Below, one piece after another: positions 588 through 50,347 of a stretch of DNA of 64,000 bases (position 1 is its first letter; each line of letters begins with the position of its first letter). A model generated the notes under the pieces. The model worked only from the letters and a program-made list of their open reading frames with translations. It had not been told where the DNA came from and made no database searches. This DNA is from a virus (taxonomy: Duplodnaviria > Caudoviricetes), in IMG/VR virus record IMGVR_UViG_3300009183_000045. One strand, given 5' to 3'. The translations under genes were made by a program, and so were the position numbers.

Positions 588-1436
588 TTACTTTAAATCC
601 CTGCCTGCGTTAATAACAGAAACCGCGATGCTAGAATGAATACTCTCATAATGATTGACAATTACGAGGTAATCCTTGATACGACCATCAAGATCTTTAT
701 CCAATTCAACTGCAACTTTACGAACCATGTCTTCAACAAACACCGGATTTTCATACATTAATTCAGTTTGATAGGCTTCATCAACTCTCTTAAGAGCATT
801 TACAATAGGAGCAGAAGAACTCTTTTCAACTGCAAGAATCAATTCTTCCAGCCAATAAATATTATCCTGATTAGCTGTGCCAACATTAGCCAATTCTACA
901 GTCACATCTGCATAAGACTGCTGATTATGTGCACCATAATCAGAAATTTCCTTAGAACAAGGACACAGGGAAGCGTAAAGAACATTTCCGTGGAGATAAA
1001 ATTTCTTTTCCCCATTAATCAGGCGACCTTCAAGTGATCCTTGATAATCCATATGAGAAACCACCTTGGAAACTGGTGCTTCTTTCTTCAAGAAATAATC
1101 AAATTTGATTTTAATGTAAGCATTTTCACTCTTCAGGCGAAGCTTACATTCATCCAGCAGGATATTCATCACTTCATCAATGCGATGAGTTTGATTGGCC
1201 AATACTTCTTCTACCAAAATACGGTAGCGACTCATATTTGTGCCTTTAACCTCTGGAGTGAGGTCTGTATACATGCTGATAATTGCTTTGGTGGGATTAA
1301 TGGTTCCATCTCGGCGAAGAATCTGCATAGGGACTACAATATTGCGAGATCCAACCTTTGGAATATATTTCTTAGGAAATCCGTCGACGGTGTTTTGGAT
1401 GTCTGGAATGTCGTTATTTGTTTTGATACGTGGCAT
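588..1436 (-). CDS. folE2: GTP cyclohydrolase I type B (FolE2/MptA family), about 282 aa
   Basis: Motifs IPDIQ, KGTNMSR, SLCPCSKEIS..GAHNQ, NPVFVEDMVR, HYESIH. Start moved to MPRIK (ATG 1436) because the longer ORF overlaps gp32. Confidence 0.92.
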   Translation of the reverse strand: MPRIKTNNDIPDIQNTVDGFPKKYIPKVGSRNIVVPMQILRRDGTINPTKAIISMYTDLTPEVKGTNMSRYRILVEEVLANQTHRIDEVMNILLDECKLRLKSENAYIKIKFDYFLKKEAPVSKVVSHMDYQGSLEGRLINGEKKFYLHGNVLYASLCPCSKEISDYGAHNQQSYADVTVELANVGTANQDNIYWLEELILAVEKSSSAPIVNALKRVDEAYQTELMYENPVFVEDMVRKVAVELDKDLDGRIKDYLVIVNHYESIHSSIAVSVINAGRDLK

Positions 1437-1494
1437 AATGTTGTTTTGTTTGTTGTTATTATTATAGTGGGTTGAGATTTTTTTTCTCCAAGAA

Positions 1495-2376
1495 TTAAAG
1501 GTCTTTGAGAATGTCTTTAATGCGGCTATCGACAGGAATTTCATCTTCATCTTCTGTAGAACGAGCGGGTTTTTCTGTAACTGATTGTGTCTTACTGGGT
1601 GTATAAGAAGGTGTATAAGAAGGTTCATCTTCCTCTGGTACTTCTGGAGTCTTTGTAGCAACTACTGCTTCTGTTTGTCCAAGAAAATGAATATTCAAAG
1701 CTTTTGAAACTTCTTCATAGCTCTTGTGTTCAAAAATGGTGTCCAAAGACTTAACAGAATTGTAAATTACATCTGTATCTGGATCTCCCTCAAGAGCTGA
1801 CGGACCAGTAAATTTAGAGGCAACATATGTAGGATAACCCCCTTCGTTGGTTTCTACCTTAATACGAAGATTGCATCCCTTTTCTGATAGATCAAAAATC
1901 TTTGCTCCCAAATCTTCTGCGTCATCTCCTGAAATTGCTGACGTAATAATCTTGTCCAGCTGTTTGCCGAATCGAAGAATCTTTACCTGACCCTGATTTT
2001 CGGGATTGGTTGGATCCTTGATGACGTATACATTGGCTAACCAGTTTTCATTGCGCTTGATGGGCTTAATGCGTTCAATTTCATTCTTGTCCTGGGTGCG
2101 ATAAATCTTGGAACGACATTCATCAATGGCACAGCGCTCTCCGTAAGTGGAAGGACATAGGCAAGATACCAATTCATTGGTAATAACACTATTCCACAAG
2201 TGGTGGTAATAGTGGAACATGGTGCGCTCGGGATTGGCTAGATTTGGAATAAGACGAACTAGATAAGTCTTACCAATTTCCAATTTCATAAAATCTTTAA
2301 AACTTCCTCCCTCTCCTGAGGATTTTTTAGTAAGGGCTTCTTTGATGGATTCGAATAGGTTGGCTGTGTATTTCAT
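1495..2376 (-). CDS. T4 gp32-like single-stranded DNA-binding protein
   Basis: VRLIP, H..W, C..T.GE.C..C zinc site, WLANVYVIKDP.NPEN.GQVKILRFGKQL, acidic tail. Confidence 0.92.
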   Translation of the reverse strand: MKYTANLFESIKEALTKKSSGEGGSFKDFMKLEIGKTYLVRLIPNLANPERTMFHYYHHLWNSVITNELVSCLCPSTYGERCAIDECRSKIYRTQDKNEIERIKPIKRNENWLANVYVIKDPTNPENQGQVKILRFGKQLDKIITSAISGDDAEDLGAKIFDLSEKGCNLRIKVETNEGGYPTYVASKFTGPSALEGDPDTDVIYNSVKSLDTIFEHKSYEEVSKALNIHFLGQTEAVVATKTPEVPEEDEPSYTPSYTPSKTQSVTEKPARSTEDEDEIPVDSRIKDILKDL

Positions 2377-3377: not shown

Positions 3378-4274
3378 TTATCTATTTACAGGCTGTAGGT
3401 TTTTTGTAACCTCCATGAAGAGAGGAGTTATTATACCACCTCCAGCATGAAGATGGCCACCCCCTTCACATATTTTTTCAGCAAAGACTCCTACATTTAT
3501 AGGATCTTCTTTGGTGTATTGTCTAATGCTGACTTTTTCGGTTTTGCTATTGATAAAAAAGAACACATCTGGTCGATGTCTTTGCATAAGAATATCATTA
3601 GAGACACTAGAAAAGTTTTCGGCCATAATTGCTAAAGTTTTTTTCTTTTTGGTTCCAAAATTAATATATCCCTCAAATAAAGGCAATTTGTTAGCAATTT
3701 CTTCTCCTTCTTTTTTGATAAAATTAATGGCTCTTTTTTGTCCATTACTAAATCCTCGAAAACCATTGAAATAATCTTTGATAAATTTTGTAAAATTGTT
3801 TCTATATTCTGACCAAAATAATATATTTAAATCATAAGATTCGGGAATTTCAAGACGATAACAATCATAATCATCAGCTAATGCTATAAGCATCTTTTGA
3901 TCATTTGTTCTTGTTGGAAATTTATCTCCTTTAAATATCTGGGCCATAAGGAGAGCATTGGATGAAATATTTTTGTGTATAATTTTTGCCTTTAAAAATC
4001 TTGGTATAAAATCTATAGAAGTATCGTGATGATCTATAAATGTTATATAGCTCTTATCTAATTCAGGAAGAAATTCTTCACGAAGAGATAAATCCAACAC
4101 AAATGTTTGACAGGGTTTATTAACTTTTTCTAAAGATTTTTTAATATGATCTATCTGTAAATTATTTACACTGTCGTATGTAATGGTGTCTTCTGGTAAA
4201 GCCCACAGTAATGTCAGTAAACTTACAGCTCCGTCAAGATCATTGTGGGTATATGCGTGATAACAATTAGACAT
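3378..4274 (-). CDS. DHH/DHHA1 phosphoesterase (RecJ/NrnA superfamily)
   Basis: HNDLDG, DLS, DHH and C-terminal GGGH motifs. Confidence 0.9.
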   Translation of the reverse strand: MSNCYHAYTHNDLDGAVSLLTLLWALPEDTITYDSVNNLQIDHIKKSLEKVNKPCQTFVLDLSLREEFLPELDKSYITFIDHHDTSIDFIPRFLKAKIIHKNISSNALLMAQIFKGDKFPTRTNDQKMLIALADDYDCYRLEIPESYDLNILFWSEYRNNFTKFIKDYFNGFRGFSNGQKRAINFIKKEGEEIANKLPLFEGYINFGTKKKKTLAIMAENFSSVSNDILMQRHRPDVFFFINSKTEKVSIRQYTKEDPINVGVFAEKICEGGGHLHAGGGIITPLFMEVTKNLQPVNR

Positions 4275-5751: not shown

Positions 5752-6183
5752 TTATTGGAAGGTTGCGGAGTTATCTGCATGCTCCCAAACCTCAACTTTG
5801 AACACTCTACATCGAGTTCCATACTTTTGTTTAATGATATTATCTGCTGCGTTAAAACACCATTCTGCTGTCTTTTCAATTCCTACTCCATCCATAATTC
5901 GAAGATCACATCCTTTTAAAATATGCAATTCTTCAAAATATCTTAACAACGGATCATCAGCTGCTACACAAAGAGTGTGGTCAAATTGATCCTGTAAAAC
6001 CTTTTTAAGATCTTTGAGATCTCCAAAATCTACACACCAATTTTTATCATCTAATTCTTTGCATTCAAACCAAAATTTGGCTTTAAGTTGGTAGCCGTGA
6101 ACGTATTGACAATGGGAGTGTTGTGCTCTCCATTGACGAAAAGCACAGCTACCCAATTCAATAATTTTTGTAGATTCAAACAT
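5752..6183 (-). CDS. queD: 6-carboxy-5,6,7,8-tetrahydropterin synthase
   Basis: HSHCQYVHGY, VDFG.LK, FDHTL, E..A, VWEHADNSATF. Confidence 0.92.
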   Translation of the reverse strand: MFESTKIIELGSCAFRQWRAQHSHCQYVHGYQLKAKFWFECKELDDKNWCVDFGDLKDLKKVLQDQFDHTLCVAADDPLLRYFEELHILKGCDLRIMDGVGIEKTAEWCFNAADNIIKQKYGTRCRVFKVEVWEHADNSATFQ

Positions 6184-6188: not shown

Positions 6189-7337
6189 TTACTCTTGCTC
6201 TTCTACATCATTATCTGGTTCTAAGACCGGAGAATCAACGGTTTCTTTGCGATATTTGAGTTGTTCTTGTAATTTACTTTCAATCTGTGGAAGAATCTTA
6301 TTCCATATTTCTTCATCAGCTCTCCAAGATTTATAATATCCTAATTTAGTCCCGTCAGCTAATGCAAAAGTGGCTCCGTTTTGAACAACTACACCATACC
6401 CAAGTGCCATTTCAAGAAGACCAGAATACTTGGCCAAACCCGACCTGAAATTGAGATATAATTCTGTTTCAAGAAAAGGAGGAACAATGCGATTCTTAAT
6501 TGTAAGAGCTCTTAAAGTCACACCGTTAACATCTTTTGCCATTGGTATAATTTCATCGGAAGCCTCTCTACTGCCATTGGAACCACCAGAAGCCTTTTCA
6601 TTTTTGACAGCCATCTGCACTAGCACAGAAGACATATACAAAGGACCGGAACCGCCAGACTGTTGCTTCACAACTCCTGGAAACATTTCCGAAGGATTTG
6701 TATAGATGTGATTACTGAATATAATAGGCACATCTGCTTTAGCTGCTTTATGTGTTAACACTCGAAGCATACTCTTGAGTCCCTTGGCTCTAGCTCCCAT
6801 ATCCATGGCTTCTTTGCCTGCAGACACATCATTCATCTCCTTAGTAGAAACTAAATTTCCTAGAGAGTCAATAGATATAATAAATTGACTCTTAAGTTTT
6901 TTTTCAATGACAGAATCAAGAAATTGACTAATCTGATTACGACACTGTTCAACTGTTTCAACCGGACAATATTTAACTCTAGAAGGATCTATACCCATGT
7001 TTGATGCAGATTGAGCATCTACTGCATTCTCTGTATCAAAGATAACAACATAGCGACCCGCTTTTTGAGCTTCTGCTAGAATTTTATTAATAACATAAGT
7101 CTTACCACAACTAGTAGGACCACTAAATCCAGTAATACGACCACTAGGAATTCCTTTATACAAAGAACCCCCTACAATGGCATTCAAAGCCATAGACCCT
7201 GTATCAATAAAACTACTAACATTAGACAATGTATTATTATCTAAAAAAGAAGCTTCTGGATTTAATCCATCTAAAACTTTAAAGGCAGATAACACATCTG
7301 CAGGATAATCTTTTTTTGCCATATTTTTATTCATCAA
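6189..7337 (-). CDS. uvsX: UvsX RecA-like recombinase
   Basis: IDTGSMALN, GRITGFSGPTSCGKT, FDTENA, IDSLGNL, QSGGSG. Confidence 0.93.
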   Translation of the reverse strand: MMNKNMAKKDYPADVLSAFKVLDGLNPEASFLDNNTLSNVSSFIDTGSMALNAIVGGSLYKGIPSGRITGFSGPTSCGKTYVINKILAEAQKAGRYVVIFDTENAVDAQSASNMGIDPSRVKYCPVETVEQCRNQISQFLDSVIEKKLKSQFIISIDSLGNLVSTKEMNDVSAGKEAMDMGARAKGLKSMLRVLTHKAAKADVPIIFSNHIYTNPSEMFPGVVKQQSGGSGPLYMSSVLVQMAVKNEKASGGSNGSREASDEIIPMAKDVNGVTLRALTIKNRIVPPFLETELYLNFRSGLAKYSGLLEMALGYGVVVQNGATFALADGTKLGYYKSWRADEEIWNKILPQIESKLQEQLKYRKETVDSPVLEPDNDVEEQE

Positions 7338-7719
7338 ACAAATTGACTACAGTATTATTTGTTTGCTGATTGGGTGCTGGCTGTTGGTTAACTGTACCTG
7401 GAGGCACAAATAAATTATTCTTATTAAATAATTGAGCATATTGGGCCAATAGACGAAAATCTATAGCAGAAATATTCGAAGTGGTGATCAATTTGTTTTG
7501 GAAAGTAAACTGAACATCATCTGCTTTATCTGCAAGAAATTCTCTAAAGAATAGAGGGTATAATTGTACAGTCATACCACCCTTTTCAGCGGGGACAACA
7601 TTTAAAATAACTGGATTGGTCACCACTGTGACATCTTCAGTTTGAGAGGTTAATTCTCCTAGAATGGTTCTTCCTACTGTATCTAGGAACACTGCGGTTT
7701 TTTTGGTTTCTTCACTCAT
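7327..7719 (-). CDS. Hypothetical protein, possibly Sm/LSm-like beta fold
   Basis: G.TILGEL...V.NP pattern resembles small Sm-like proteins of T4-like phages; weak. Confidence 0.55.
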   Translation of the reverse strand: MSEETKKTAVFLDTVGRTILGELTSQTEDVTVVTNPVILNVVPAEKGGMTVQLYPLFFREFLADKADDVQFTFQNKLITTSNISAIDFRLLAQYAQLFNKNNLFVPPGTVNQQPAPNQQTNNTVVNLFDE

Positions 7720-7731
7720 TGTGTTAATTTA

Positions 7732-8538
7732 TTATATTACTAATATTCCATTTTTCAATGCAAATTCTTCTCTTTTTGGTTCTGTTGTTTCTGGAGATAA
7801 TATATCTTCTAGAGATCCTTCTGGACTAGGATGGGATAGTAAGGTGTTTTTGCGTGGTGTTTCTTTATTTTCTTTTTTAGTGGTAACAACCTCTAGAGCT
7901 TCTGCAATGGCCGGAAATAATTGGTTAAAACTTTCCTTGATAGAATTAGCTATTGTCCTGTGTTCAAGTTGAGTATCTACTTTGCACCTCAAATCAAAAT
8001 AATGGATCCAGGAACGAATGTTTCCGGACATATAAAGAGTTGTTTGTGTGCAAAGAGGTAAAACTTTACGAGCACTTTCTCTTGCTCCTCCTTTGGATAT
8101 TATATATTCATACAGATCAATGCCATCTGTTACATGATCTATTACTCTTTTAATATCTTCCTTGCTTAGTGGTAAAATATCTGTACTAGATTGACGATTT
8201 TTTTCTGCCTGAGCTCTAATATCGAAGGATTCAATTCCGGTTACCATACTGTATCGCTGGCTAAATTCTTGAAAAGCAAAAGACTTGTGTCTAATAATTT
8301 GAGCTGATATGTCCCTGCTAGTTTGAATTTCAACCGTCATTGAAGCTTGCTCAAAGATGGACCAATGGCCGTGTTCTATACAATATTTAATTAATTTTGA
8401 AGCAGATTCTAAGTTTAATTGATTAGATGGATTTGAAACTCTGGCACAATATACAATAAATTCTTCTGCGGTTAAAAATCTTGTATTATCTTCAGATCTT
8501 ATAAAGGGTTGAGTAACTGCTACTACTTTGGTGTACAT
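7732..8538 (-). CDS. thyX: Flavin-dependent thymidylate synthase
   Basis: ARVSNP, HWSIFE, RHKSFAFQEFSQRY, ARE.AR.VLP, TQLEHR. Confidence 0.95.
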   Translation of the reverse strand: MYTKVVAVTQPFIRSEDNTRFLTAEEFIVYCARVSNPSNQLNLESASKLIKYCIEHGHWSIFEQASMTVEIQTSRDISAQIIRHKSFAFQEFSQRYSMVTGIESFDIRAQAEKNRQSSTDILPLSKEDIKRVIDHVTDGIDLYEYIISKGGARESARKVLPLCTQTTLYMSGNIRSWIHYFDLRCKVDTQLEHRTIANSIKESFNQLFPAIAEALEVVTTKKENKETPRKNTLLSHPSPEGSLEDILSPETTEPKREEFALKNGILVI

Positions 8539-9332
8539 ATACCTTTAAATTTTAAAATGTTATGCTTAATAAGTTCTAAATTTGAAGAAGAAATTTCTGT
8601 ATCAAATAACTCTACCATTTTTTGAGGAGATTTGTCTAAAAGAGTTTCAATGTCATCATATGATTTACCAGAAATACCTGCCATAACGGGGTGGGATGTA
8701 TCTATACTATCAATAAAATTATATCTCATTGCTACATAATGACTAAATTCTGTAGGGACACCACATCCTAATAAATGATGTGGTTTATTTTTATTAATAA
8801 TACCCATTCCCACTAAGTGATTTATTAATTTAATGCGACCTACATTAAATCTATAAGCATTTGAATTGACATAATGTTCTTGTGTAGATTCTAGAAAATA
8901 ATCATAACCAAAACTAATTGCTATCTTATCAGCCTTTTCATTCATGAACCGATAACACTTTACAAGTTCTTGTAAAGTTTTGCCTTGCAAGACACCAATC
9001 TTTTTACCTGATAATTGAGACAAATCAAAATTATTTGTAAAAGATTCAAATGAACTAATATTGTGATCACAATCTTGCCATACGTCAGGCACTATATATT
9101 CATCTGGTTGAATTTCTAAAAGCCATTTGTAATATTTTTTTGAATCAAATGCTACACCTAATTCAAAAAGACTGCAATCCATAATAATTTGACGACCACT
9201 AATTTTAGCTTTCTTAAAAAATTCTAAATATGCAGGGTATTGTTCCAGTAGATGAACTAAACAATAATCATAATCTGTCATTGTTTGTATCTCGTCCATA
9301 ATTGACATTGGAGCTTCGTGTGCTATTCTCAT
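8523..9332 (-). CDS. TGT/DpdA-like TIM-barrel base-exchange transglycosylase (candidate DNA 7-deazaguanine insertase)
   Basis: Motifs in TGT order: IIMDCS (DSGG-like), PDV, GVLQG, HLLGCG, SIDTS; co-occurs with folE2/queD/queE/queC. Confidence 0.68.
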   Translation of the reverse strand: MRIAHEAPMSIMDEIQTMTDYDYCLVHLLEQYPAYLEFFKKAKISGRQIIMDCSLFELGVAFDSKKYYKWLLEIQPDEYIVPDVWQDCDHNISSFESFTNNFDLSQLSGKKIGVLQGKTLQELVKCYRFMNEKADKIAISFGYDYFLESTQEHYVNSNAYRFNVGRIKLINHLVGMGIINKNKPHHLLGCGVPTEFSHYVAMRYNFIDSIDTSHPVMAGISGKSYDDIETLLDKSPQKMVELFDTEISSSNLELIKHNILKFKGICTPK

Positions 9333-9353
9333 ATTGTTTTAATAATAACCCGA

Positions 9354-11693
9354 CTATCCGAATAAATCAAACAAATCTGTCTGAACTTCTCTTCCTGTTT
9401 GTGGAAGTCTCCATCCAATACAATCATAAAACCTCTCTAGTGGAGGAGATACTATCTTGTCAAACATGGTTTGATAATCGGGTTTGACGTGTTCATAAAG
9501 TTCTGTAGGATATCTTTCCATGAAAGCCATACTTTTGTAATTGAAAGCGTTCTTGCTTGTGTAGAAATATTTCAATTTCATGGCACTTCCTATAGATTCA
9601 TACTGATGATCCAATTTATAATGCTTGAGGAGTTTATTAAAGTGAATAGCACTCTTGGCTTGGAGAGTTGTTCCCTTTCCTATTTGTCCAAAAGCGTCTA
9701 TTTTGGCTTCATATTTTTCATAATCAGAAATTTTGGTTCTAATTGAAATGTTTTCCACCGGCATACTACAAAAGTCTTCATGAGCTTTCTTAAATATGGT
9801 GTCTGCTTTCTTTTTATCTTGAGCCATCATTGCAGATTCAATCACACTTTTGATTAATTCTTTAACTTCCTTCGAGATTGTAGAGCGAGCTATCTCAACT
9901 CCTACATATTTGAAAGGTTTCTTCGGAATCTTGCCTTCTTTGTCTATAATGTGTAGTATATAGCGCTTCTTAGCATCAAATAAAGCTACATCACAAATTG
10001 TTTCTTGTTTAAAAACAAACCGTGGATCACTTACTTTCAGTTCTTTTCGAGCCCATATCTTGATTTGTTCATTGAGATATACGTCAATTTCCCCGATTAC
10101 CTTCCTGGCTCCTTCTGTAATCTTGCCGTTTTCCTGCAGATTGATGTTTAGGGTATTGAGGATGGGTTCGATGGAAAAGTAAGCAGAATCAGTATCTCCG
10201 TAGCGATACAGGTCGCCTTTCTTCCCGGTAAACCCTTGCTGCCGGGCATATTCTAAAACAATTTCTGGAGCTTGCTTGGCCACTGTTTGGCCTGTTAGAG
10301 TAATGCTAGCGGAATGATCAATGTCAAAAAGCGGAGAATATTTCTGTGCAAATACACCATAAATGGAGTTTAGAATCAACTTAAACACATTTTGTTGTGT
10401 GTCAAGGTTAAGAATCTCGGCTTCAAGCCGTAATTTTTCCTCTTTATCTGTTAATGTCTCTGCAATATCTGTTAATCTTGAGGCTTCTCTCTGAGTTTGC
10501 ACTCGTTCATCATACAATCTATCGATTAAAGCAGGCACAACACCACGAAATTTCTGTGTATACAATACATTATACTTAGAAATTGACAATTCTTCTTTCT
10601 GTACCAGGCGATTAAACTTTTCTTCAGAGAGAATTACTGTTTTTTCATTGGAAAGACGAATTGTATACTCATTATTTTCTATTTCGACTATTTTTCCTAT
10701 CTTTGTCTCCGGAGAAATGTTCAAAGTGATGATTGTATTTGGATATAGACTGTTTGCATCATAGCTTACCACAGATTTACACAGACCTCTCTCGGGTTCG
10801 TGTACATATCCACCTACATATTCATCTCTGATGCCGTCATTCTTGAATGTAGGGATGCGATATCCCTGTAAAAGAGCTTGATGAGCAACTGCTCCGGTGA
10901 TCATAGAGACCTTTCCGAGAGATTGTTCGAAGGGAATGAAACCTTTATAGGACAAAGCTCTAATCAATTTGAGAAATTTAAGCTTCTCTTCCATCTTTGC
11001 TAGCAGTCTTACATCTTGTATGTTGTAATCTACAAATAAATCCCAATCAGATTCTGAGAGAGCTGCTAGATTGGTGCCACCAACATCTGTTTTGCCTTCA
11101 TTCAATTCATATTCTGAAATATAATTCAAAGAATAAGACTCTCTGTCGCCGCGGGAGAAGGTTTTATACACCTCCATGTAGTCAATATTACTCACTCCAC
11201 GAATATACCACCTATCAATCATCTTACCCATCTTGTTCATTGCTACATTCTCTCGATAGTAGATAGCCCTTACCGGAGATAGACGAGAAGTCTCCTCTTG
11301 GCCCAAGAGTTTATTAATGCGATTCATTACATAAGGAACGTCAAATCCCTCAGAGTTCCAACCAACCATCATATCTGGAGGATCTTTCTCCCAGAAACTC
11401 AAAAAAGCATTTAATAATTCTGTTTCTTTTTTACAATATGTGTAAACAACATTATCTTCTTTAGGTTTATAGGGTTTCAATCCCCAAGAATAAAATTTTT
11501 GACTGATGGAATCAAAAATTGTAATTAAATTGATTGGGTCATTGGCTATTTTAGGCTCCGGAAATTCTCCTTGTTGACTATAACAAGAATTAAAGTATGA
11601 AGTCCAACACTGTTTATCTTCATCCCATACTTCATAATCTTCAAACATGTTGCTATTACGAAATTCTCCTAATTTTATTGTGGATTCAGCCAT
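9354..11693 (-). CDS. gp43 family B DNA polymerase, C-terminal part (rest of exonuclease plus polymerase domain), 779 aa
   Basis: ExoII GWNSEGFDVPY, ExoIII YNIQD, motif A SYDANSLYP, motif B KLILNSIYG, motif C YGDTDS, KKRY. Confidence 0.95.
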   Translation of the reverse strand: MAESTIKLGEFRNSNMFEDYEVWDEDKQCWTSYFNSCYSQQGEFPEPKIANDPINLITIFDSISQKFYSWGLKPYKPKEDNVVYTYCKKETELLNAFLSFWEKDPPDMMVGWNSEGFDVPYVMNRINKLLGQEETSRLSPVRAIYYRENVAMNKMGKMIDRWYIRGVSNIDYMEVYKTFSRGDRESYSLNYISEYELNEGKTDVGGTNLAALSESDWDLFVDYNIQDVRLLAKMEEKLKFLKLIRALSYKGFIPFEQSLGKVSMITGAVAHQALLQGYRIPTFKNDGIRDEYVGGYVHEPERGLCKSVVSYDANSLYPNTIITLNISPETKIGKIVEIENNEYTIRLSNEKTVILSEEKFNRLVQKEELSISKYNVLYTQKFRGVVPALIDRLYDERVQTQREASRLTDIAETLTDKEEKLRLEAEILNLDTQQNVFKLILNSIYGVFAQKYSPLFDIDHSASITLTGQTVAKQAPEIVLEYARQQGFTGKKGDLYRYGDTDSAYFSIEPILNTLNINLQENGKITEGARKVIGEIDVYLNEQIKIWARKELKVSDPRFVFKQETICDVALFDAKKRYILHIIDKEGKIPKKPFKYVGVEIARSTISKEVKELIKSVIESAMMAQDKKKADTIFKKAHEDFCSMPVENISIRTKISDYEKYEAKIDAFGQIGKGTTLQAKSAIHFNKLLKHYKLDHQYESIGSAMKLKYFYTSKNAFNYKSMAFMERYPTELYEHVKPDYQTMFDKIVSPPLERFYDCIGWRLPQTGREVQTDLFDLFG

Positions 11694-12487
11694 ATATTGC
11701 GCAGATTTGTTAAATTTTTATGTTTACAAGGAGATATATTCTCTATCAAATAAGATATAAATTCCTCTTCAGACATATTAGCGTATCTCTTACCCGAAAT
11801 CTCCCTTTGATTGGTTTTTTTACCCTTTTTGGCTTCTGATATCTTTCGTCCTCTTTCAATGTGGTTAACATTTTGGTTGTGCAAAGATTTTTTTAATCTA
11901 TTTTTTTTATCCTCAGCTGATAATTGAGATATATTTAATTTAGCCTTGCTGGATAGTTGCTGCCTCACCTCTAATGTATATCCTGCAGAGACTACCTTGG
12001 ACCTATCCCAGTGGCCGTAAATATATTTATTTTTTTTAATATTCACCCTATTGCCACATCCACATAAACAAATTGGTAAATTTTCTAATTTAATCTGATT
12101 TAAAATTAAATTTCTTTTTTGGTGGGATTCTGAGACCTTAAGGCGTGTCTCTGGATTTTTCATTGGATGATTGATTGAATATTCTTTCCTGGCAATTTCA
12201 AATTGTCTAGAAGTAGTTTTTCTATTTTTAGAATTATGAAAACACATTCGATTAAAAGCAGATGATAATTTAGTCTTTATCTGAATATTGTCTTTTTTAT
12301 ACATTTTACACAAAAGCCAATGAGCTATAAAATGTTCCCTGGCGGTGAGTAAACTAATATTGGAAGTTTCATTAGAACCCCCTAAACATTTAGGAATTAT
12401 ATGATGTCTTTCATAATATTGAAGAGTTAATTTAATTCTAGTTGTTCCTCTAGTACAGATTTTGAGATATATAGACTTATAATTCAC
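11675..12487 (-). mobile_element. HNH homing endonuclease gene (GTG start) inserted between the two gp43 pieces
   Basis: ERHHIIPKCLGGSN...N...LTAREHFIAH HNH motif, CLCGC and basic C-terminal DNA-binding region. Confidence 0.92.
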
Positions 12488-12490
12488 ATA

Positions 12491-12500
12491 TATAATTATA
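12491..12500 (-). promoter_or_regulatory. Palindromic TATAATTATA, candidate late promoter for the HNH gene
   Basis: Variant of T4 late TATAAATA; the TAATTA core ends 5 nt before the GTG. Confidence 0.45.
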
Positions 12501-12516
12501 AGTCTCTAAGTCCCGG

Positions 12517-12915
12517 TTAAGATTTTTTTCTTATTTTAATTTTATGATCGTCCTTGTATCTCATACCGTACGTTTCAATGTCCCAAAAGTAAATCTTTAA
12601 AGGATTTGCCAGTGCTTCTGGCTTATGGATATCATCTTTGAATGAAGACAACAAAAATTCTTGTTCACAACTGAGATTGTGAAATATTCTTTTAATGGCC
12701 GTCTCGTTTACAAATTTATTACGTTCAAATTGATTTTTGAACTTAACTTTTTTTAGAGGTGTATTAAAAATAGAGACCGCATCTGTGCCGTATGCAGATT
12801 CTACGAACAGATGCGGTTCATAACTGGATTCTAATTTGATTCGTTTACCATTTTCATTCCACGTCCACAGATGGACACACTGTTTTGCGGAATCATAAAA
12901 GACATTTCGATACAT
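12517..12915 (-). CDS. gp43 DNA polymerase, N-terminal part (N-domain plus ExoI motif), 132 aa
   Basis: MYRNV...W..NG.R....YEP.LF gp43-type N-terminus and ExoI YFWDIETY, then ends with KIRKKS-stop. Confidence 0.9.
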   Translation of the reverse strand: MYRNVFYDSAKQCVHLWTWNENGKRIKLESSYEPHLFVESAYGTDAVSIFNTPLKKVKFKNQFERNKFVNETAIKRIFHNLSCEQEFLLSSFKDDIHKPEALANPLKIYFWDIETYGMRYKDDHKIKIRKKS

Positions 12916-14956: not shown

Positions 14957-15709
14957 CTAGACTCTTAACGCTCTATCCCAAACCATTAAATGCAAACGAG
15001 GAGACATTTTAAATCCATACTGCTTACACAATTCTGCCACTGGTTCTGCATTATCTATATGTTCTGCTCTTGAACCGGCACATACCATAATCCATATAAG
15101 ATCCCGAGGAATCATAAGACCAGGGTGATTAATAAAATCTATAAACAACTCTTGCATATCAGTTTCATCCTTGATGACAAATTTAAAACAGGAATTGTGA
15201 TCTACATGAAATTTTAAAGCCTGTAAATTATAACGCTTTTGTTTAGAATCTCCGTTAGAGGATAATTTTGGAGACGTTGTAAAAGTTGCATTATATTCTT
15301 CTACCCATTTTGGATCCGGTAGAATGGTACCATTGGTCTCAAAATCTATACGAGGAAGAAATCCAAAGTGATTTTTAAAGGCTTCTACAAACTTTAATAG
15401 AGGTTCTTGCCGGAGCATGGGTTCTCCTCCAGTAATTTTCCATATATCACCTCGACGGAGGTTATCAGCTAATCCATTTTCTTTATAAAATTTGAACAAT
15501 TGTTCAAAACTATACTTATTTTTCTTAGACCAAGAGATATAAGAATCACAACCCCACGGAGAATCTGGTGATGCCCATCCGCGGCAGGTTAGGTTGCACC
15601 CAAACAGCCTCATGAATACACTCGGATAACCAATAAACTTTCCTTCACCTTCAATGGTATGAAAACCAGGTCCATCATCACTGATCAATAGATAATTTTC
15701 TTCAGACAT
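14957..15709 (-). CDS. queE: 7-carboxy-7-deazaguanine synthase (radical SAM)
   Basis: F.TIEGEG...G.PSVF.RL.GCNL.C...CDS, ITGGEP, ETNGT, SPKL, PRLH..W. Confidence 0.93.
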   Translation of the reverse strand: MSEENYLLISDDGPGFHTIEGEGKFIGYPSVFMRLFGCNLTCRGWASPDSPWGCDSYISWSKKNKYSFEQLFKFYKENGLADNLRRGDIWKITGGEPMLRQEPLLKFVEAFKNHFGFLPRIDFETNGTILPDPKWVEEYNATFTTSPKLSSNGDSKQKRYNLQALKFHVDHNSCFKFVIKDETDMQELFIDFINHPGLMIPRDLIWIMVCAGSRAEHIDNAEPVAELCKQYGFKMSPRLHLMVWDRALRV

Positions 15710-19606: not shown

Positions 19607-20152
19607 TTAACCTGTTGTAGATGGATAATAAAAATAAATAGGATCTGTTATGTAAACTTCTGTAACTAATTCTTCTTTTAAACGGAGAGAATAATCTTTA
19701 TCTTCCTGATATGATAAATCAGGAAATCCTACCTTTAAAGCAATTTCTCTCTTTACTGGATTGAGATGATTTGGACATCTATAATATATGTTATTTTCTT
19801 CATACCATTCTTTATATTTTATAGAATGAATAAATTTGCGGGATCCTAGATGTTTTTGGGTAATAATTCCTTCTATTCCAACACAATCTGGTTGATCTTT
19901 TATGGCTTCTAATATACTAGATATAAAATAAGGAGACACCATATCATCATCATCTACAAATACGATGTAATCTCCTTGAGCAGCATTCAAGAGTTCATTT
20001 CTCTTGGCTCCTATGGTTTTTTCCCCGTCATCTATATTTGCCAACATTTCAACACTATTATTAGATTGAGCATTGAGAATCCGTGCTAGATTATGAAAAA
20101 CTAAAGACCTCTTGGTGAGCGTGGCGGTTAAAATGGAAAGTTTTTTTGACAT
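19607..20152 (-). CDS. GT2 glycosyltransferase
   Basis: LSIL, IGAKRN, GDYIVFVDDDD, QED. Confidence 0.85.
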   Translation of the reverse strand: MSKKLSILTATLTKRSLVFHNLARILNAQSNNSVEMLANIDDGEKTIGAKRNELLNAAQGDYIVFVDDDDMVSPYFISSILEAIKDQPDCVGIEGIITQKHLGSRKFIHSIKYKEWYEENNIYYRCPNHLNPVKREIALKVGFPDLSYQEDKDYSLRLKEELVTEVYITDPIYFYYPSTTG

Positions 20153-20153
20153 A

Positions 20154-21629
20154 TTAAAAAGAAACCAAGTAATGTATATAGTTATCTACAGAAGTTGATA
20201 AAACAACTTGTTTTATATTATCTAAACAATTTGTTATGCCATCTATTTTATGAGATTCTAAATTACTATTTTTGTATGCATTAAATTTTTTCCCATTAAT
20301 TTCATGACATATATTTTCTTGAGGATCATTTAACCGGTGTATATGAGACACACTAAAAAATTTACCAAAGGGGTGTTTGTAAGGAACTAATCCCTCTCTT
20401 ACACATCTTTCATATAAATCATCATCTTCTTTGCCCCATCCTTCATACTGATTACTGTACCCATTGACCTTGATTAGATGATCTTTATTAAAGAGAACAA
20501 CCCCTCCCATGATTTTGTCCGGGATATTAACATAATTAAACTGACTACAATGACTACTAATGTGGGATGGAACGGAAGGATAACTGTAGTCTGCATATTC
20601 GGGTAATAGATCCACATCATGAAAACATATATAATCACCAGAAGACTTGGTGTACCCTATATTGTTCAACAAGCCCTTATTAAAGGGCTTGTTGTTATCT
20701 TGTTCCACAACAATAATTTCATAATTTTCTACTTGTCTGGAAACATAGGAATGAAGAGATGGAATAATTTTTTCTAAAGCATTCTTGCGATCTCTGTATG
20801 GAATTATTATAGAAAGTTTTTTGTCTTTATTAATTTCTTTTTTTCTGCTATAATTATTTTGTAAAAACATTAAAGAATAACATAAATTTTTAATACCCTC
20901 ATCTTCTATACTGTTTGTAAATTTGCCCCATTTATTAGTAAAATGTTTAGCAGAAACGTCCCAATTTTCTTTGTATTTGTCTTTATTGGTTATAGAAGAT
21001 TCTTCATTACTTCCTAGTATATCTGTTATATAATCTTGACTGTTTAATAAATCTGGAAAATACCAAAAAGGAGGTGCTACATTATTGGTAACTAAATTGT
21101 ATGCAAAATCTACATGCTCAAATGCATTTATATAAGTTTCATCAAAATATCCTAATTTAGTTACCAGATTAGAATGTATGTACATAAATGCTCCTTGAGG
21201 GTTGTGGTAAAACCCAAGTTTAGTGCCGTCTGGTTGTTCAAGAACAAATTTTAAGGTCTTTTCATTATTTGCCACCTTTTCAAAACACAGATGATGTATT
21301 CCTGTAGAATTTGCGGCTTTAATGTAAGCATTAAACACACCCGGATCTTTAATTAGAATATCATCTTCTATGAGAAATAAGTGTTTATATCCCTTATCAA
21401 TGAGATATTTTAGGAGTATGTTCTTGCTTTTGGCTACTCCTTTTTGTTTTTTGTTTAGGATTATATGATCTACATCCCACTGAGGAGTAGCATAACTATT
21501 TTCTCCATCATTAACAACAACAAGTGTTCCTATTTTATTTCTAGGAACACTTGCAAGAACTTGCTGATAATAATCAGGTCTATTGTAGGTTAATATACCT
21601 ACTCCTATTTCTGATGGTGAGATTTCCAT
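20154..21629 (-). CDS. Two-domain glycosyltransferase: GT2-like N-domain fused to GT7 (beta-1,4-galactosyltransferase-like) C-domain
   Basis: N: TYNRP, LIEDD. C: IIPYRDR, FNKGLLNN, FHDVD, MGGV, NGYSN.YEGWGKEDDD. Confidence 0.88.
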   Translation of the reverse strand: MEISPSEIGVGILTYNRPDYYQQVLASVPRNKIGTLVVVNDGENSYATPQWDVDHIILNKKQKGVAKSKNILLKYLIDKGYKHLFLIEDDILIKDPGVFNAYIKAANSTGIHHLCFEKVANNEKTLKFVLEQPDGTKLGFYHNPQGAFMYIHSNLVTKLGYFDETYINAFEHVDFAYNLVTNNVAPPFWYFPDLLNSQDYITDILGSNEESSITNKDKYKENWDVSAKHFTNKWGKFTNSIEDEGIKNLCYSLMFLQNNYSRKKEINKDKKLSIIIPYRDRKNALEKIIPSLHSYVSRQVENYEIIVVEQDNNKPFNKGLLNNIGYTKSSGDYICFHDVDLLPEYADYSYPSVPSHISSHCSQFNYVNIPDKIMGGVVLFNKDHLIKVNGYSNQYEGWGKEDDDLYERCVREGLVPYKHPFGKFFSVSHIHRLNDPQENICHEINGKKFNAYKNSNLESHKIDGITNCLDNIKQVVLSTSVDNYIHYLVSF

Positions 21630-22435
21630 ATCTGCTTTAAAGATTCTAACATATCTTTTTCAGAAGTAAACCTTTCCGGAGGACCATAATTGGTTACTAT
21701 TGAAAATTTATTTTTAGATATAAAAATATCTAAATTCTTTTTAAAATTTTCCATAAAATCTTGCTCAGATCTTATTTTACTTTGACCATGGTTTGCTACT
21801 ATATCCTTTACATACAATGAAGAATTTTTAACATCTGCAAACCATCTAAAAGGAGGATGATATCCCTTTAATGATATATGCAAGGTATGGTCTACGTGTT
21901 CGAGTGCATTATAAAAAGATTCATCCATTAATCCTACATCTTTTAAAACGTCTATATGAAAATAACTCAATGCCCCTAAAATATTAGGATAAAGATCTAT
22001 TATGGTTCCGTCTGGGTAATTAACACTCTTTCTTATAATTGGTTGTCCTTGTGGATCCAAATTATGATTTCCGTGTAGCCCAAAATTAAAATGTTTTATA
22101 CCGGTTGTTTTGCTGGCTTCTATGTAAAAATTAAAAACATTGTCATCAATAATTTCTATATCATCTTCTAAAATAAATATATGTTCACATCCCTTGTCTA
22201 TAAGAGATTTTAAAGCCAAATTTTTGGCTTTACCTACACCAATCTTGCCTTCAGTTTTAATATACCAATTAAGAAAAGGTGAGACAACCACACTCTCCAG
22301 TCCATCATCTACCACAACTGTGTAAATGTTTTTGTAAGCCTGCTTTATTTTAACTAGGGACGCTTCACATTGTTTAAAAAACTCAGGCCTATCACATGTG
22401 ATAATTGCTACGCCAATATTAAAGGGTTCTTGCAT
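21605..22435 (-). CDS. GT2-like glycosyltransferase
   Basis: IITCDRP, GVGKAKN, ILEDD, EHVD; paralogous to the N-domain of 20154..21629. Confidence 0.8.
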   Translation of the reverse strand: MQEPFNIGVAIITCDRPEFFKQCEASLVKIKQAYKNIYTVVVDDGLESVVVSPFLNWYIKTEGKIGVGKAKNLALKSLIDKGCEHIFILEDDIEIIDDNVFNFYIEASKTTGIKHFNFGLHGNHNLDPQGQPIIRKSVNYPDGTIIDLYPNILGALSYFHIDVLKDVGLMDESFYNALEHVDHTLHISLKGYHPPFRWFADVKNSSLYVKDIVANHGQSKIRSEQDFMENFKKNLDIFISKNKFSIVTNYGPPERFTSEKDMLESLKQIWKSHHQK

Positions 22436-23168
22436 AATTTTTCTGTATTAATTCCATGGATTTAAACATCTGATCAGCAGAAACACCTGTAGGATCATTT
22501 TGACCAGGAATAAATTGATGTTTGTTATAGAAAAGACCAAAACTAATTTCTGCAGACTTTTGTTCTGTAGTGTTAATTTTATTCATTTTAACCACAGACT
22601 TATATAATCCAGGACTAACACATGGATTGAAATGATTTGGGGGATATGTACCATCTGCTCGAAGTCTTAATATATAATCTAAAGTATCTAATTGATTATT
22701 ACTGTAAAGTTGTTCATTAAAGTAACCGTATCTTTTTATTAAATTAGAATATAAGAATATAACATCTGCATTTAATTCGGGAGAAATGTTTAATGAAATT
22801 TTCTTTTCTTCATCATCAATCACTAATGTATCAGATCCGGGACCCGTCATCATCCATGTTCCAAAATTAGAAGCAGTTATTATGGTTTTATTAAAAAATT
22901 CTGGATCTGTTAATGCATAATTAGAATTAATTAAAAATAAAAATTGTTTTTTTTGTAATCTAAAATGAGTCAATATTCTATTCTTAATGGAAGCAAAAGA
23001 AATTTCCTTTTCATGACGGACACTGTAAGAAGGGAGTGTATTTTTAGTATTTGATACGACAAATATATTATTAGTCAATTCTTTTGGAATAGATTCTAAA
23101 CAGTTGTTTAACTCTGTTTGACTGTATACATCTATTATACCTATTCCTATTTTTTCTGTTAAATTCAT
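22419..23168 (-). CDS. Degenerate GT2-like protein
   Basis: KIGIGII start, S.ASIKN, YGYFNE and YPP..F match the neighbouring GT2 paralogues, but no clear DxD motif. Confidence 0.5.
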   Translation of the reverse strand: MNLTEKIGIGIIDVYSQTELNNCLESIPKELTNNIFVVSNTKNTLPSYSVRHEKEISFASIKNRILTHFRLQKKQFLFLINSNYALTDPEFFNKTIITASNFGTWMMTGPGSDTLVIDDEEKKISLNISPELNADVIFLYSNLIKRYGYFNEQLYSNNQLDTLDYILRLRADGTYPPNHFNPCVSPGLYKSVVKMNKINTTEQKSAEISFGLFYNKHQFIPGQNDPTGVSADQMFKSMELIQKNYARTL

Positions 23169-24082
23169 AAGTCTTTTAAAAAGTTATTAAAATATCCAAT
23201 AGGCGAAAAGTAATCTTCCCACAATTTTCTATTTTTGTCTAAATTAAATGTCCTTTCTTCAATAATAGATGGTAATTTATTAATATCCCCTTCTTTAATA
23301 AAGATTATATAATCTTCCCAATTTATAATTGATTCAAACGGCAAATTAACATCAGAATCAATTAATATTGGAACCCTTCCAAAGGATAAAGTTTCATAAA
23401 ATCTGTAAGAAAAATTACCATGACCCCTGTAACAAAAATGATACATATTTTCTGTTAAATTTTTATTAAATTCTCTTCGTGATTGTATTAATTTATCATT
23501 GTTATCTGCCCAGTGATGCCAATAGGCCTCTCTTATTATAAAATCTGTTTTACATCCAATTTCTTTTATTGAATCTAATATTTTATGTCTTCCGTGTTGA
23601 ACCCTTCCACAAAATCCCACAGCCTTTTCTGGAATTAAATTACTATATTTTTGATCAGGTGATATGAAGGGTAAAATTCTTTCATTTTTGTGTCTAACTG
23701 ATTTATACAAAGAAGATCTATACAAAATAACATTATCCGGCAAATTAAACATGCCAGAATTATCATCAAAATAAAAATTAATTATTTTTATGTTCAATTT
23801 ATTAGATAATTCTAAAAAAGGTTCAATGTCTGTTAAATTAAATTTAAACGGATTTATAATCACATCTGCTAGAGATGGGTCTTCCACTAAAATATGATCA
23901 CAATTTTTACCATTTAAAAAAAGAGAATGGATTATGTTTTCATAAATTAAATCTGATAATTGTACTTTTTTTATTTCTTGATAAGTTTCAATTTTAATAA
24001 AAGGAATAACACAAAAAGAACTATGCCAATCTGATAACTTTTCCGGCGTTAACTTATCTTGATTTAAAATGTAAATTTTCAT
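23165..24082 (-). CDS. Exostosin-like (GT47) glycosyltransferase
   Basis: GFCG, FCYRGHGNFSYRFYETLSFGRVPILI...LPFE..I.W. Confidence 0.85.
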   Translation of the reverse strand: MKIYILNQDKLTPEKLSDWHSSFCVIPFIKIETYQEIKKVQLSDLIYENIIHSLFLNGKNCDHILVEDPSLADVIINPFKFNLTDIEPFLELSNKLNIKIINFYFDDNSGMFNLPDNVILYRSSLYKSVRHKNERILPFISPDQKYSNLIPEKAVGFCGRVQHGRHKILDSIKEIGCKTDFIIREAYWHHWADNNDKLIQSRREFNKNLTENMYHFCYRGHGNFSYRFYETLSFGRVPILIDSDVNLPFESIINWEDYIIFIKEGDINKLPSIIEERTFNLDKNRKLWEDYFSPIGYFNNFLKDL

Positions 24083-28818: not shown

Positions 28819-32724
<3,906 letters not shown>

Positions 32725-35683: not shown

Positions 35684-35684
35684 T

Positions 35685-40940: not shown

Positions 40941-40945
40941 AATGT

Positions 40946-45751: not shown

Positions 45752-46384
45752 ATGAAATTAGCAGTAGTAGGCACTCAGTGCATAGGCAAAAGCACTTACA
45801 TTAAAGATTTTTTAAATAAGTGGAAAATGTATACAACTCCTGAAAAAACATACAGAGATGTAGTCAAAGAAAAAAACATACCGATTAACAGATTAGGAGA
45901 TGAAGAATCACAACAAATTATATTAGACTTTCTGATTGATCAGGCCATGTCTTGTTCTAAAACTGAAAATGTAATATTCGATCGTTGTATATTAGACAAT
46001 CTAGCATACTCTTCCTGGCTTCATCTTAATGATAAAGTATCAGAAAAATTTTTAGACAAGTCCCGACTATTGGTAAGAGAAACTTTAAAGATGTTTGACA
46101 TCATTTTCTTTTTGCCTATTACAAAGATGTCACCAGTTGCTTTAGTTGAAGACGGTGTGAGAGACACAGATCCCGTATATAGGGAAGAAATAGACAACAT
46201 ATTTAAAGCTTTCTTAAAGTCCTATCATCAAGAAGACGGGAGAGTGTTTCCTAAAGGTGACAGTCCCCCGATTATAGAAATTTACGGAAGTCCAGAACAG
46301 CGCTTGTCTTTGACCGCTTTATACCTTAATGAAGAAGGTAAAGCCTTTGGTGAAGAACAAAGTCTTATATCTGAACTATATTAA
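45752..46384 (+). CDS. P-loop nucleotide kinase (NadR/Ttd14 AAA_28-like, possible dNMP kinase)
   Basis: AVVGTQCIGKST, IFDRCILD, YDI-like FDIIFFLP, R.EID. Confidence 0.75.
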   Translation: MKLAVVGTQCIGKSTYIKDFLNKWKMYTTPEKTYRDVVKEKNIPINRLGDEESQQIILDFLIDQAMSCSKTENVIFDRCILDNLAYSSWLHLNDKVSEKFLDKSRLLVRETLKMFDIIFFLPITKMSPVALVEDGVRDTDPVYREEIDNIFKAFLKSYHQEDGRVFPKGDSPPIIEIYGSPEQRLSLTALYLNEEGKAFGEEQSLISELY

Positions 46385-48958: not shown

Positions 48959-49702
48959 ATGGACAGTACAAATACATTGAAGTCTTGTGTAGTTTTATTT
49001 AGCGGAGGCATGGACAGTACCGTTGTACTGCATCATGCATTAGCCAATTATGATAAAGTGTATGCTTTAGCTATTGATTATGGGCAACGTAATATTAGAG
49101 AATTAACAAATGCAGAAGATTATCTTACCAGTTACATTTTAAAATCTTCATATGCAGAAAAAATCAAATATTCACGCTTGCCCCTTCCAGTTAAGCTATT
49201 GAATTTTAATTCAGCATTAACAAATGATGAGATAGAGGTGCCTAAAATGAAAGAGGTTATTGGAGATCCTCAAAATAATGCTTATGTACCCAATCGAAAT
49301 ATGATATTTTTATCATTGGCCGTTGGAATGGCAGAGAGTGTGGGTGCAACTCACGTACTATACGGAGCAGCAAAAGCAGATGATACATCAGGGTTCTGGG
49401 ATTGTACAGCTGACTTTAGAAATTATCTAAATACCATTTTATCCTTAAATCGTAGGAATTTAATAGAGATTAAAACACCTCTAATAGATAAAACAAAAAA
49501 AGAAATTATAGAATACGGTATTGAATTAGGAGTTGAGTTTGCACTGACGAGGACATGTTACACAGAACACGAAAAATCCTGTGGAGAGTGTCCTAGTTGT
49601 TCAGCAAGAATTGCAGGGTTTATTCACTCCAAAAAAATTGATCCTCTAAAATATTCTAGAGATATACCGTGGCAAAATTGGAATTGTGAACCATTATATT
49701 AA
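48959..49702 (+). CDS. queC: 7-cyano-7-deazaguanine (preQ0) synthase
   Basis: FSGGMDST, DYGQR, YVPNRNMIFLS, DC, TPL, T.TCY, CGECPSC..R. Confidence 0.95.
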   Translation: MDSTNTLKSCVVLFSGGMDSTVVLHHALANYDKVYALAIDYGQRNIRELTNAEDYLTSYILKSSYAEKIKYSRLPLPVKLLNFNSALTNDEIEVPKMKEVIGDPQNNAYVPNRNMIFLSLAVGMAESVGATHVLYGAAKADDTSGFWDCTADFRNYLNTILSLNRRNLIEIKTPLIDKTKKEIIEYGIELGVEFALTRTCYTEHEKSCGECPSCSARIAGFIHSKKIDPLKYSRDIPWQNWNCEPLY

Positions 49703-49705: not shown

Positions 49706-50347
49706 ATGTGTGCAATTAGTGGATCTAACAATTTAGAAAAGGCGTTTGCTCTTTATAAACTTAATTTACAAAGAGGTGCCCAGTCCTCGGGTATGCTAGC
49801 AGTTGGCTCCAGAGGATCCAATGTAAGCAGAATAGCAAATACATATGATGAGGATTATATATCTCATTTTAAAAAACAATTTGCTCAAAGCCCTTTCAAC
49901 TATCATTATTTTTTATTCCATTCCAGGGCTCCTACAAATAGTACAGTAACAACCTGGAGCCAAGAAACTACACACCCGTTTGCGTCTTCCAGTGGCCCAG
50001 ATTATCTCGTAGCACATAATGGAATTATAACAAATTTTTCTTCTTTTGAAGAAAGTAAACATCTAACAATAGATTCTCAAATAATTCCAGAACATCTATC
50101 GAAAACTCAAAACATTGTTGAAACATTTTCAAAATACGAAGGATTGTTTACCTGTTGGATAGTAAACAGGGATAGAATACAATTAGTTAAAGCGGGCAGT
50201 TCTCTATGGATGGATGAAAATTCCTTTTCTTCTTCCAAGTTTGAAGGTGCAGAATGTGTGGAAGATGATGGTGTTATATTTGATTATAAAGACGGAAAAT
50301 TTGAAAAGAGTGGAACCTTTCCGTACACCAACACTTATTTTATATGA
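49706..50347 (+). CDS. Class II (Ntn) glutamine amidotransferase
   Basis: N-terminal Cys (MCAISG), RG..SSG, HSRAPT, HPF, AHNGII. Confidence 0.88.
   Translation: MCAISGSNNLEKAFALYKLNLQRGAQSSGMLAVGSRGSNVSRIANTYDEDYISHFKKQFAQSPFNYHYFLFHSRAPTNSTVTTWSQETTHPFASSSGPDYLVAHNGIITNFSSFEESKHLTIDSQIIPEHLSKTQNIVETFSKYEGLFTCWIVNRDRIQLVKAGSSLWMDENSFSSSKFEGAECVEDDGVIFDYKDGKFEKSGTFPYTNTYFI

Follow-up and report, generated by a model that had tools for sequence, protein, structure and literature searches.

Which molecule does a short, zinc-less relative of the tRNA-guanine transglycosylases (TGT) act on when its gene is embedded in the replication module of a phage, and which base does it insert? The question is raised by a gene of an uncultured freshwater T4-like phage represented by a stretch of 64,000 nucleotides (IMG/VR record IMGVR_UViG_3300009183_000045), the whole of which was analysed and is called the window hereafter. 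The gene, located on the minus strand between the genes for a family B DNA polymerase and the flavin-dependent thymidylate synthase ThyX (Table 1), almost certainly encodes a DpdA3 member of the TGT/DpdA transglycosylase superfamily.

The open reading frame (ORF) of 269 codons encodes the elements MDCS (position 51), PDV (82), LQG (115), HLLG (186) and DTS (211) in the order claimed by an earlier sequence-only reading of the window, which had also reported the lack of a zinc motif. The translation contains six cysteines, yet CxCxxC was found neither in this protein nor in any of the 269 DpdA3 relatives collected. Homologues numbered 1408 (E≤1e-3, clusters at 90%), with 1472 DpdA3 representatives at 50% identity, and the window protein is also recorded on JGI metagenome contigs. 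An alignment of 43 sequences contained 38 invariant columns. The invariant residues include D52 of MDCS with F56 four positions further on, D83 of PDV, Q116 of LQG, H186 and L188 of HLLG and D211 of DTS, with D52, D83 and D211 unchanged in 43 of 43 sequences. Four basic residues (R47, R166, K183 and K234) are invariant as well. The homologue counts, together with the invariant residues at the C-terminal ends of the barrel strands, establish that the ORF is a real gene and not a chance ORF. A decayed TGT was considered and rejected, the ORF being full-length and strongly conserved with invariant active-site residues. A megablast search of window positions 7000-12000 against 50,697 phage records returned zero matches; a close cultured relative is therefore absent among those records.

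The end of the polymerase ORF at 9354 is separated by 21 nt from the ATG of the DpdA3 gene at 9332, no terminator-like site was found on the minus strand between the two genes, and the 3' end of the DpdA3 gene overlaps the start of thyX by 16 nt. Both the overlap and the position directly downstream of gp43 given in the sequence-only reading agree with these coordinates, and the spacing is consistent with its proposal that the gene is probably co-expressed with replication.

The DpdA3 subfamily is not new, having received its name and definition in 2023 (Cui, Hutinet et al., NAR; PMC10516641), and the window protein is a further member. In tblastn searches of phage genomes the protein matched a gene of Flavobacterium phage immuto annotated as 'DNA guanine transglycosylase, DpdA' with 44.5% identity (E 2e-64) and genes of the Campylobacter CP220/CPt10/CP21 group with 39% identity (E 1e-45), the matches in Bacillus phages being weaker. 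A hidden Markov model (HMM) of the family recovered CP220 gp056 at 1e-82 and CGPG_00065 of Cellulophaga phage phiST at 5e-20, the latter with an hhalign probability of 99%. The immuto DpdA, CP220 gp056 and phiST CGPG_00065 are DpdA3 members, and guanine is replaced to 100% in their phages, by dADG in CP220, dDG in phiST and fdPreQ1 in immuto (PMC10516641). The earlier suggestion of a possibly distant DpdA subfamily was therefore correct, the subfamily being one already described, since homology to these three proteins identifies it with DpdA3.

General profile libraries did not reveal this relationship. Neither Pfam nor NCBIfam contained a match for the window protein, and PHROGs returned a single match, to an unnamed family (Table 1). 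The Pfam TGT family PF01702 was without a match to the window protein at E≤0.01 and was touched by 1 of the 43 relatives (E 0.008). The DpdA4/DUF6610 proteins (PF20314) of archaeal viruses are likewise short, divergent viral TGT relatives, but the window protein did not match that profile and the weak matches of 4 of the 43 relatives (best E 1.8e-5, 24.9 bits) fell under the 27-bit Pfam cut-off. The family HMM found nothing significant among PDB sequences, with 7ui4 appearing only at E 1.4, and a tblastn search of the phages with E. coli TGT found bacterial-type TGT genes only, without DpdA1 or DpdA2. The TGT likeness of the window protein is detectable by profile-profile or structural comparison and not by Pfam.

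The AlphaFold2 model computed from the 43-sequence alignment, with a mean predicted local distance difference test (pLDDT) of 94.1 and a predicted template modelling score (pTM) of 0.91, is a plain eight-stranded (beta/alpha)8 barrel. The top 50 Foldseek matches in the PDB were all tRNA-guanine transglycosylases (E ~1e-8). A search independent of Foldseek ranked first the bacterial DNA preQ0 insertase DpdA of S. Montevideo (7ui4_A; Z 17.0, root-mean-square deviation 3.3, 231 residues aligned), and scored archaeal TGT (1iq8_A) and bacterial TGT (3unt_A) at Z 16.4 each and QTRT2 (6fv5_A) at 15.6. The best unrelated TIM barrel was PdxJ (6rg0_A) at Z 14.6, and Cap10 (9ntn_B) scored 14.5. Both searches thus indicate a barrel of the TGT type, with the bacterial DpdA 7ui4 as best match in the second, and fold, motifs, context and homology concur with the sequence-only description of a short TGT/DpdA-like transglycosylase without zinc.

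Profile-profile comparison, performed with hhalign in local mode against a small TGT alignment, gave E 3.5e-5 and a probability of 72% for the DpdA3 family and paired IGVLQG with FGIIQG, KPHHLLG with KPRYLMG and IDSIDTS with GIDMFDC, the last pairing therefore placing D211 on the TGT nucleophile Asp. The three invariant active-site aspartates are D95, D130 and D256 in S. Montevideo DpdA, and the DpdA structure paper assigns roles to D95 (acid/base), F99, D130, H181, L236 and D256 (nucleophile). In the model, D52 with F56, D83, Q116, L188 and D211 occupy the C-terminal ends of strands 3, 4, 5, 7 and 8, the order of DpdA being kept. On the basis of strand position and the aromatic residue four positions after the Asp (F56 like F99), D52 and D83 are the presumed counterparts of the other two TGT/DpdA aspartates.

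The window protein shares with S. Montevideo DpdA the barrel and the predicted arrangement of the Asp nucleophile and the acid/base, but the two are only 12% identical in sequence and the insertion between strand 8 and helix 8 (Ins8) is absent from DpdA3 together with the zinc site. In TGT and bacterial DpdA a CXCX2CX22H zinc site holds Ins8 (128 residues long in 7UI4) in place, and all insertions and the zinc site are conserved across the DpdA family according to the DpdA structure paper. Bacterial TGT, archaeal arcTGT and eukaryotic QTRT1/2 (PF01702) have the fold in common with DpdA3 (Z 15.6-16.4), and their Q-G, (Y/H)L(M/L)G and Asp-nucleophile motifs align, but the window protein is ~100 residues shorter and lacks the zinc subdomain, the N-terminal lid, the tRNA-binding insertions and a Pfam match. 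Fold and catalytic motifs put DpdA3 in the superfamily although one of its defining structural features is missing, and the window protein is filed as DpdA3, neither a canonical DpdA nor a TGT.

Gene context was compared in the 80 best-matching related IMG/VR loci and several metagenome loci, a sample biased by the choice of best matches, with neighbouring genes marked by HMMs built in this analysis. Downstream of DpdA3, on the same strand and within 3 kb, QueF was found in 66 of the 75 loci with at least 3 kb of downstream sequence, an AAA_28 P-loop gene in 57 (often immediately adjacent), a DpdN-like formyltransferase in 47 and ThyX in 8. Upstream, in the 52 loci with at least 5 kb available, QueE was present in 35, FolE in 31, QueD in 29, a phosphoribosyltransferase in 21 and a MazG-like gene in 16. 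A tree of 90 DpdA3 sequences placed the window gene in a clade of 12 ThyX-linked genes (SH-like support 0.993), apart from the QueF and formyltransferase clades that hold immuto and CP220, and the PolB-DpdA3-ThyX order is kept in the 12-member clade. The window protein resembles the DpdA3 proteins of immuto, CP220 and phiST in family, length (~260-270 aa), lack of the zinc motif and viral location among FolE/QueD/QueE genes. It differs from them in belonging to this separate clade within a T4-like replication module, in a context with QueC and a class-II glutamine amidotransferase (GATase)-like gene and without QueF, DpdN or DpdL, and in having an AAA_28 kinase that is unlinked to DpdA3.

Fusions involving DpdA3 were found among metagenome proteins. 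DpdA3 was joined to a DpdN-like formyltransferase in P0151 and P0155, and to an N-terminal AAA_28 domain in P0269, where QueC adjoins. P0134 and P0231 are also among the fusion proteins, further partners seen being a NUMOD3 motif region and DUF3310. In two loci (L010, 9337-10008; L051) DpdA3 is preceded directly by a CxxCxxCC (YkgJ/DpdM-like) gene and followed directly by QueF, which suggests that DpdA3 also occurs with the methyl-preQ1 pathway.

The base offered to the window enzyme can be approached from the pathway genes, which are scattered through the replication module (Table 1). QueF was not found among window ORFs of at least 100 aa, nor in the related IMG/VR records, one of which is rated 100% complete; QueC is present in these records. 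Since the window has the genes from FolE2 to QueC and a complete relative lacks QueF, the gene content points to preQ0 or one of its close derivatives (ADG, G+) as the probable base. The GATase-like gene directly after QueC is tentatively read as part of a split Gat-QueC. Such a gene also lies 3' of QueC in many DpdA3 loci, and since it is common in those containing QueF the product may feed ammonia to QueC instead of making G+. In the window it is followed by genes for a family-2-like glycosyltransferase and a DUF366 protein (49706-51658, plus strand); a literature search for DUF366 yielded DUF3669 papers only. With QueC and the GATase-like gene and without QueF, DpdN or DpdL, the clade is therefore predicted to use a base different from the dADG of CP220, the dDG of phiST and the fdPreQ1 of immuto, and the pairing of base and enzyme in this clade is probably new.

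Exchange of guanine for 7-deazaguanine by double displacement is, by analogy with TGT and bacterial DpdA, the very probable reaction. The phage FolE2, QueD, QueE and QueC with the GATase-like partner would build the 7-deazaguanine base from GTP. D211 would attack C1' of a 2'-deoxyguanosine unit and expel guanine, with D52 as the putative general acid/base, D83 and Q116 reading the Watson-Crick edge, and F56 and L188 sandwiching the base, after which the 7-deazaguanine would resolve the covalent intermediate. Newly made phage DNA is the acceptor with a probability of roughly one in two. The DpdA3 gene would be co-transcribed with the polymerase gene and thyX, and in the published view the modified phage DNA would then be protected from restriction. 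Insertion into DNA by DpdA3 was itself inferred in the literature.

Several observations weigh against this scheme. The N-terminal half of the hhalign alignment is unreliable, and of the five motifs only LQG, HLLG and DTS were aligned with those of TGT. Only ~36 residues separate strand 8 from the last helix, leaving out the whole of Ins8 and the zinc ligands. The family is acidic (median pI ~5.3, median (K+R)-(D+E) of -12), although this is a weak argument. As regards the base, preQ0 is considered an unlikely DpdA3 substrate, phiST and the Campylobacter phages being without the full preQ0 pathway, and the authors' tests of DpdA3 in E. coli failed (PMC10516641). The conserved gene partners of DpdA3 are enzymes of free nucleosides and nucleotides, not of DNA. 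Finally, for a ~215-kb genome with the 34.4% GC of the window, an estimated ~74,000 guanines would have to be exchanged per genome copy.

In an alternative, to which the gene partners point at least as much as to DNA, family and chemistry are the same but a 2'-deoxyguanosine nucleotide or nucleoside in the free state is modified, before replication. In this route dGTP would be cleaved to dGMP or dG, DpdA3 would swap the base, the AAA_28 protein would re-phosphorylate the product, and the polymerase would incorporate the modified deoxynucleoside triphosphate (dNTP), the logic being that of T4 gp56/gp42/gp1 for hydroxymethyl-dCTP; the likeness to the T4 proteins is a functional analogy only, with no homology. 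The possibility is a tentative one, with odds somewhat short of even, and no published proposal of a nucleotide-level route for DpdA3 was found in the literature searched.

The kinase step would fall to the AAA_28 partner. In its alignment a P-loop is accompanied by DRCxLDGxVYT, a motif like that of thymidylate kinase, and by the motif DDGVRS. The model of the window protein (pLDDT 85.5) had as top Foldseek matches M. mycoides deoxyadenosine kinase, human deoxyguanosine kinase (dGK) and deoxycytidine kinase (dCK), the riboside-kinase domain of NadR and thymidylate kinases (E ~2e-6), with Z 13-16 against these kinases in the Foldseek-independent search. AAA_28 thus models as a kinase of the deoxynucleoside or deoxynucleoside monophosphate (dNMP) type. 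The substrates of such kinases are free nucleosides and nucleotides, in which they differ from the ATPase required by bacterial DpdA, the ParB-like DpdB, which is stimulated by DNA (DpdA structure paper). No ParB-like DpdB partner was seen for DpdA3, and its recurrent P-loop partner has instead this nucleoside/nucleotide-kinase fold. The presence of AAA_28 downstream in most loci and the natural AAA_28-DpdA3 fusion also favour the free-nucleotide route, as do the MazG and phosphoribosyltransferase genes upstream.

The arrangement in the three phages for which full replacement is proven is consistent with this route, a kinase-like gene and a dNTP-cleaving enzyme being located beside DpdA3 in each. 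In CP220 (L097, 6868-9361) gp055, an HD phosphohydrolase fused to a P-loop domain, is followed by gp056 (DpdA3) and gp057, an AAA_28 protein (E 6.5e-53) annotated as thymidylate kinase. The order is MazG-like, DpdA3, DpdN, AAA_28 in immuto, and MazG, DpdL, P-loop protein, DpdA3 in phiST. The P-loop protein of phiST, CGPG_00066 (L099, 16382-16861; 159 aa), contains the Walker A motif GEICSGKD and resembles a P-loop kinase of small size; with E 0.015 against the AAA_28 HMM it is no match to that family, is taken as a P-loop protein only, and has no homologues in other 7-deazaguanine phages (PMC10516641). Moreover, the ADG nucleoside was found in the cytoplasm of cells infected with CP220, and expression of DpdA3 by itself brought about no DNA modification in E. 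coli (PMC10516641). The minimal barrel, without insertions that contact nucleic acid, also speaks for this route. In view of the kinase-like and dNTP-cleaving partners, the ADG nucleoside, the failure in E. coli and the missing insertion, pre-replicative exchange competes seriously with the post-replicative model of the literature.

Against the free-nucleotide route, a TGT-superfamily enzyme that uses a free nucleotide is not known. In the window the kinase gene is located 36 kb from DpdA3, 2.6 kb upstream of QueC, and no dGTP-removing MazG, HD or Nudix gene was found among window ORFs of at least 100 aa or in three records of relatives, including a complete one. A phosphoribosyltransferase is present in the clade of the window, and this enzyme and the kinase could equally well return guanine released from DNA to GTP, from which the modified base is made. 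Two AAA_28 copies are present in the related phage records (G001-G003), the second located 16-19 kb further on, at a position that would lie just beyond the window.

Gene position was compared with that of T4. The window order gp43 - DpdA3 - ThyX - orf - UvsX - QueD - gp41 corresponds to 43 - imm - 42 - beta-gt - segA - uvsX - 40 - 41 in T4, so that the slot filled in T4 by gene 42 and the beta-glucosyltransferase gene, between gp43 and uvsX, is taken in the window by DpdA3 and ThyX. As the T4 slot contains one nucleotide-level and one DNA-level modifier, position does not decide the acceptor of DpdA3.

An acceptor other than DNA or a free deoxyguanosine nucleotide or nucleoside is unlikely, even when tRNA and all further possibilities are taken together. 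A TIM barrel of another activity, such as a hydrolase removing guanine from nucleotides or nucleosides, or an enzyme with a non-nucleic-acid acceptor of the kind that the TGT-like Cap10 of the cyclic oligonucleotide-based antiphage signalling system (CBASS) seems to use, might be argued from the scores of generic barrels close behind that of DpdA (PdxJ and Cap10) and from the failure of sequence profiles alone to detect TGT. It is rendered highly improbable by the uniform TGT identity of the top Foldseek matches, by aligned motifs that fit the TGT base pocket and nucleophile, and by the tight, almost exclusive linkage of the gene to those of 7-deazaguanine synthesis. Least probable of all is a tRNA-modifying transglycosylase inserting the base into host or phage tRNA, for although tRNA-guanine transglycosylases of bacteria, archaea and eukaryotes are among the nearest folds of known structure, the Ins3, Ins8, zinc site and PUA-type domain with which TGT grips tRNA are all lacking, the phages of characterised relatives have fully modified DNA, not tRNA (PMC10516641), and the gene sits in a replication operon.

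Table 1. Coordinates in the window of the DpdA3 gene, its replication-module neighbours and the genes assigned to 7-deazaguanine synthesis and to the kinase partner.
Feature	Position	Strand	Remarks
DpdA3-type 7-deazaguanine transglycosylase	8523..9332	-	269 aa, bare (beta/alpha)8 barrel; phrog_19058 match 1e-49
ThyX, flavin-dependent thymidylate synthase	7732..8538	-	Pfam Thy1 E 2.5e-45; start overlaps DpdA3 stop by 16 nt
Family B (T4 gp43-like) DNA polymerase, large C-terminal part, 779 aa	9354..11693	-	directly upstream of DpdA3
HNH homing endonuclease inside polymerase gene	11675..12487	-	
N-terminal fragment of split DNA polymerase, 132 aa	12517..12915	-	phrog_262, positions 8-128
GTP cyclohydrolase FolE2	588..1661	-	first step of 7-deazaguanine synthesis
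QueD, 6-carboxytetrahydropterin synthase	5752..6183	-	
QueE, divergent radical-SAM 7-carboxy-7-deazaguanine synthase	14957..15709	-	QueE equivalogs E 2e-13 to 2e-6, all under curated cut-offs
QueC, 7-cyano-7-deazaguanine synthase	48959..49702	+	TIGR00364, 166.9 bits, above cut-off
Class-II glutamine amidotransferase-like protein	49706..50347	+	directly after QueC; GlmS N-terminal domain E 9e-6, weak
AAA_28 P-loop protein, deoxynucleoside-kinase/thymidylate-kinase-like fold	45752..46384	+	partner-family HMM E 8e-54

The T4-like genes of the window include those for gp32, DnaB/gp41, UvsX, UvsY, Rad50-like gp46, gp15, the portal and the prohead protease. The T4-type polymerase is split by the HNH gene in the window (9354-12915), and in relatives it is a single ORF of 857-862 aa. 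A DHH/DHHA1 phosphoesterase gene (3378-4274, minus strand) is located beside DnaB throughout the clade, and no other gene of phosphoesterase type lies near the pathway. Other mobile endonuclease genes encode a SegE-like GIY-YIG protein (27843-28268, plus strand) and a TnsA-like protein (62064-62531, plus strand), the latter among the structural genes, after the portal gene and before that for the prohead protease. Glycosyltransferase genes are unusually many (GT2, GT7, GT47, GT61, GT92-like and nucleotide-diphospho-sugar transferase) and, together with the gene for a 1301-aa collagen-repeat protein, are located at 19607-24082 and 39939-42522 on the minus strand and at 50344-51042 and 28819-32724 on the plus strand; the glycosyltransferases might act on DNA, on the collagen-like protein or on the host surface. 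Two adjoining DUF1501 genes (34412-37052, plus strand; E 1e-110 and 9e-129) are unusual for a phage.

DpdA3 is the family tied to complete replacement of guanine in phage DNA, the modified fraction being 100% in DpdA3 phages and <0.1% to 30% with bacterial DpdA, DpdA1 and DpdA2 (PMC10516641), and DNA modified in this way withstands many restriction enzymes and can interfere with sequencing and cloning. Metagenomes contain many members of the family (~1,470 clusters at 50% identity), most of them still annotated as hypothetical since Pfam and NCBIfam do not cover them. For a 7-deazaguanine phage the window gene is ordinary. It represents a separate clade from freshwater T4-like phages, where DpdA3 is tied to the polymerase and ThyX and the pathway ends at QueC with the GATase-like protein, and the bare barrel with its recurrent kinase partner makes the choice between DNA and free nucleotide as acceptor approachable with two small soluble proteins. 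Should a free deoxyguanosine nucleotide or nucleoside prove to be the acceptor, DpdA3 proteins would be the first TGT-fold enzymes to exchange a base on such a substrate. With a dedicated kinase and, where present, a dGTP-cleaving enzyme, they would constitute a pre-replicative supply of 7-deaza-dGTP analogues to the polymerase, which would explain the full replacement seen only with DpdA3.

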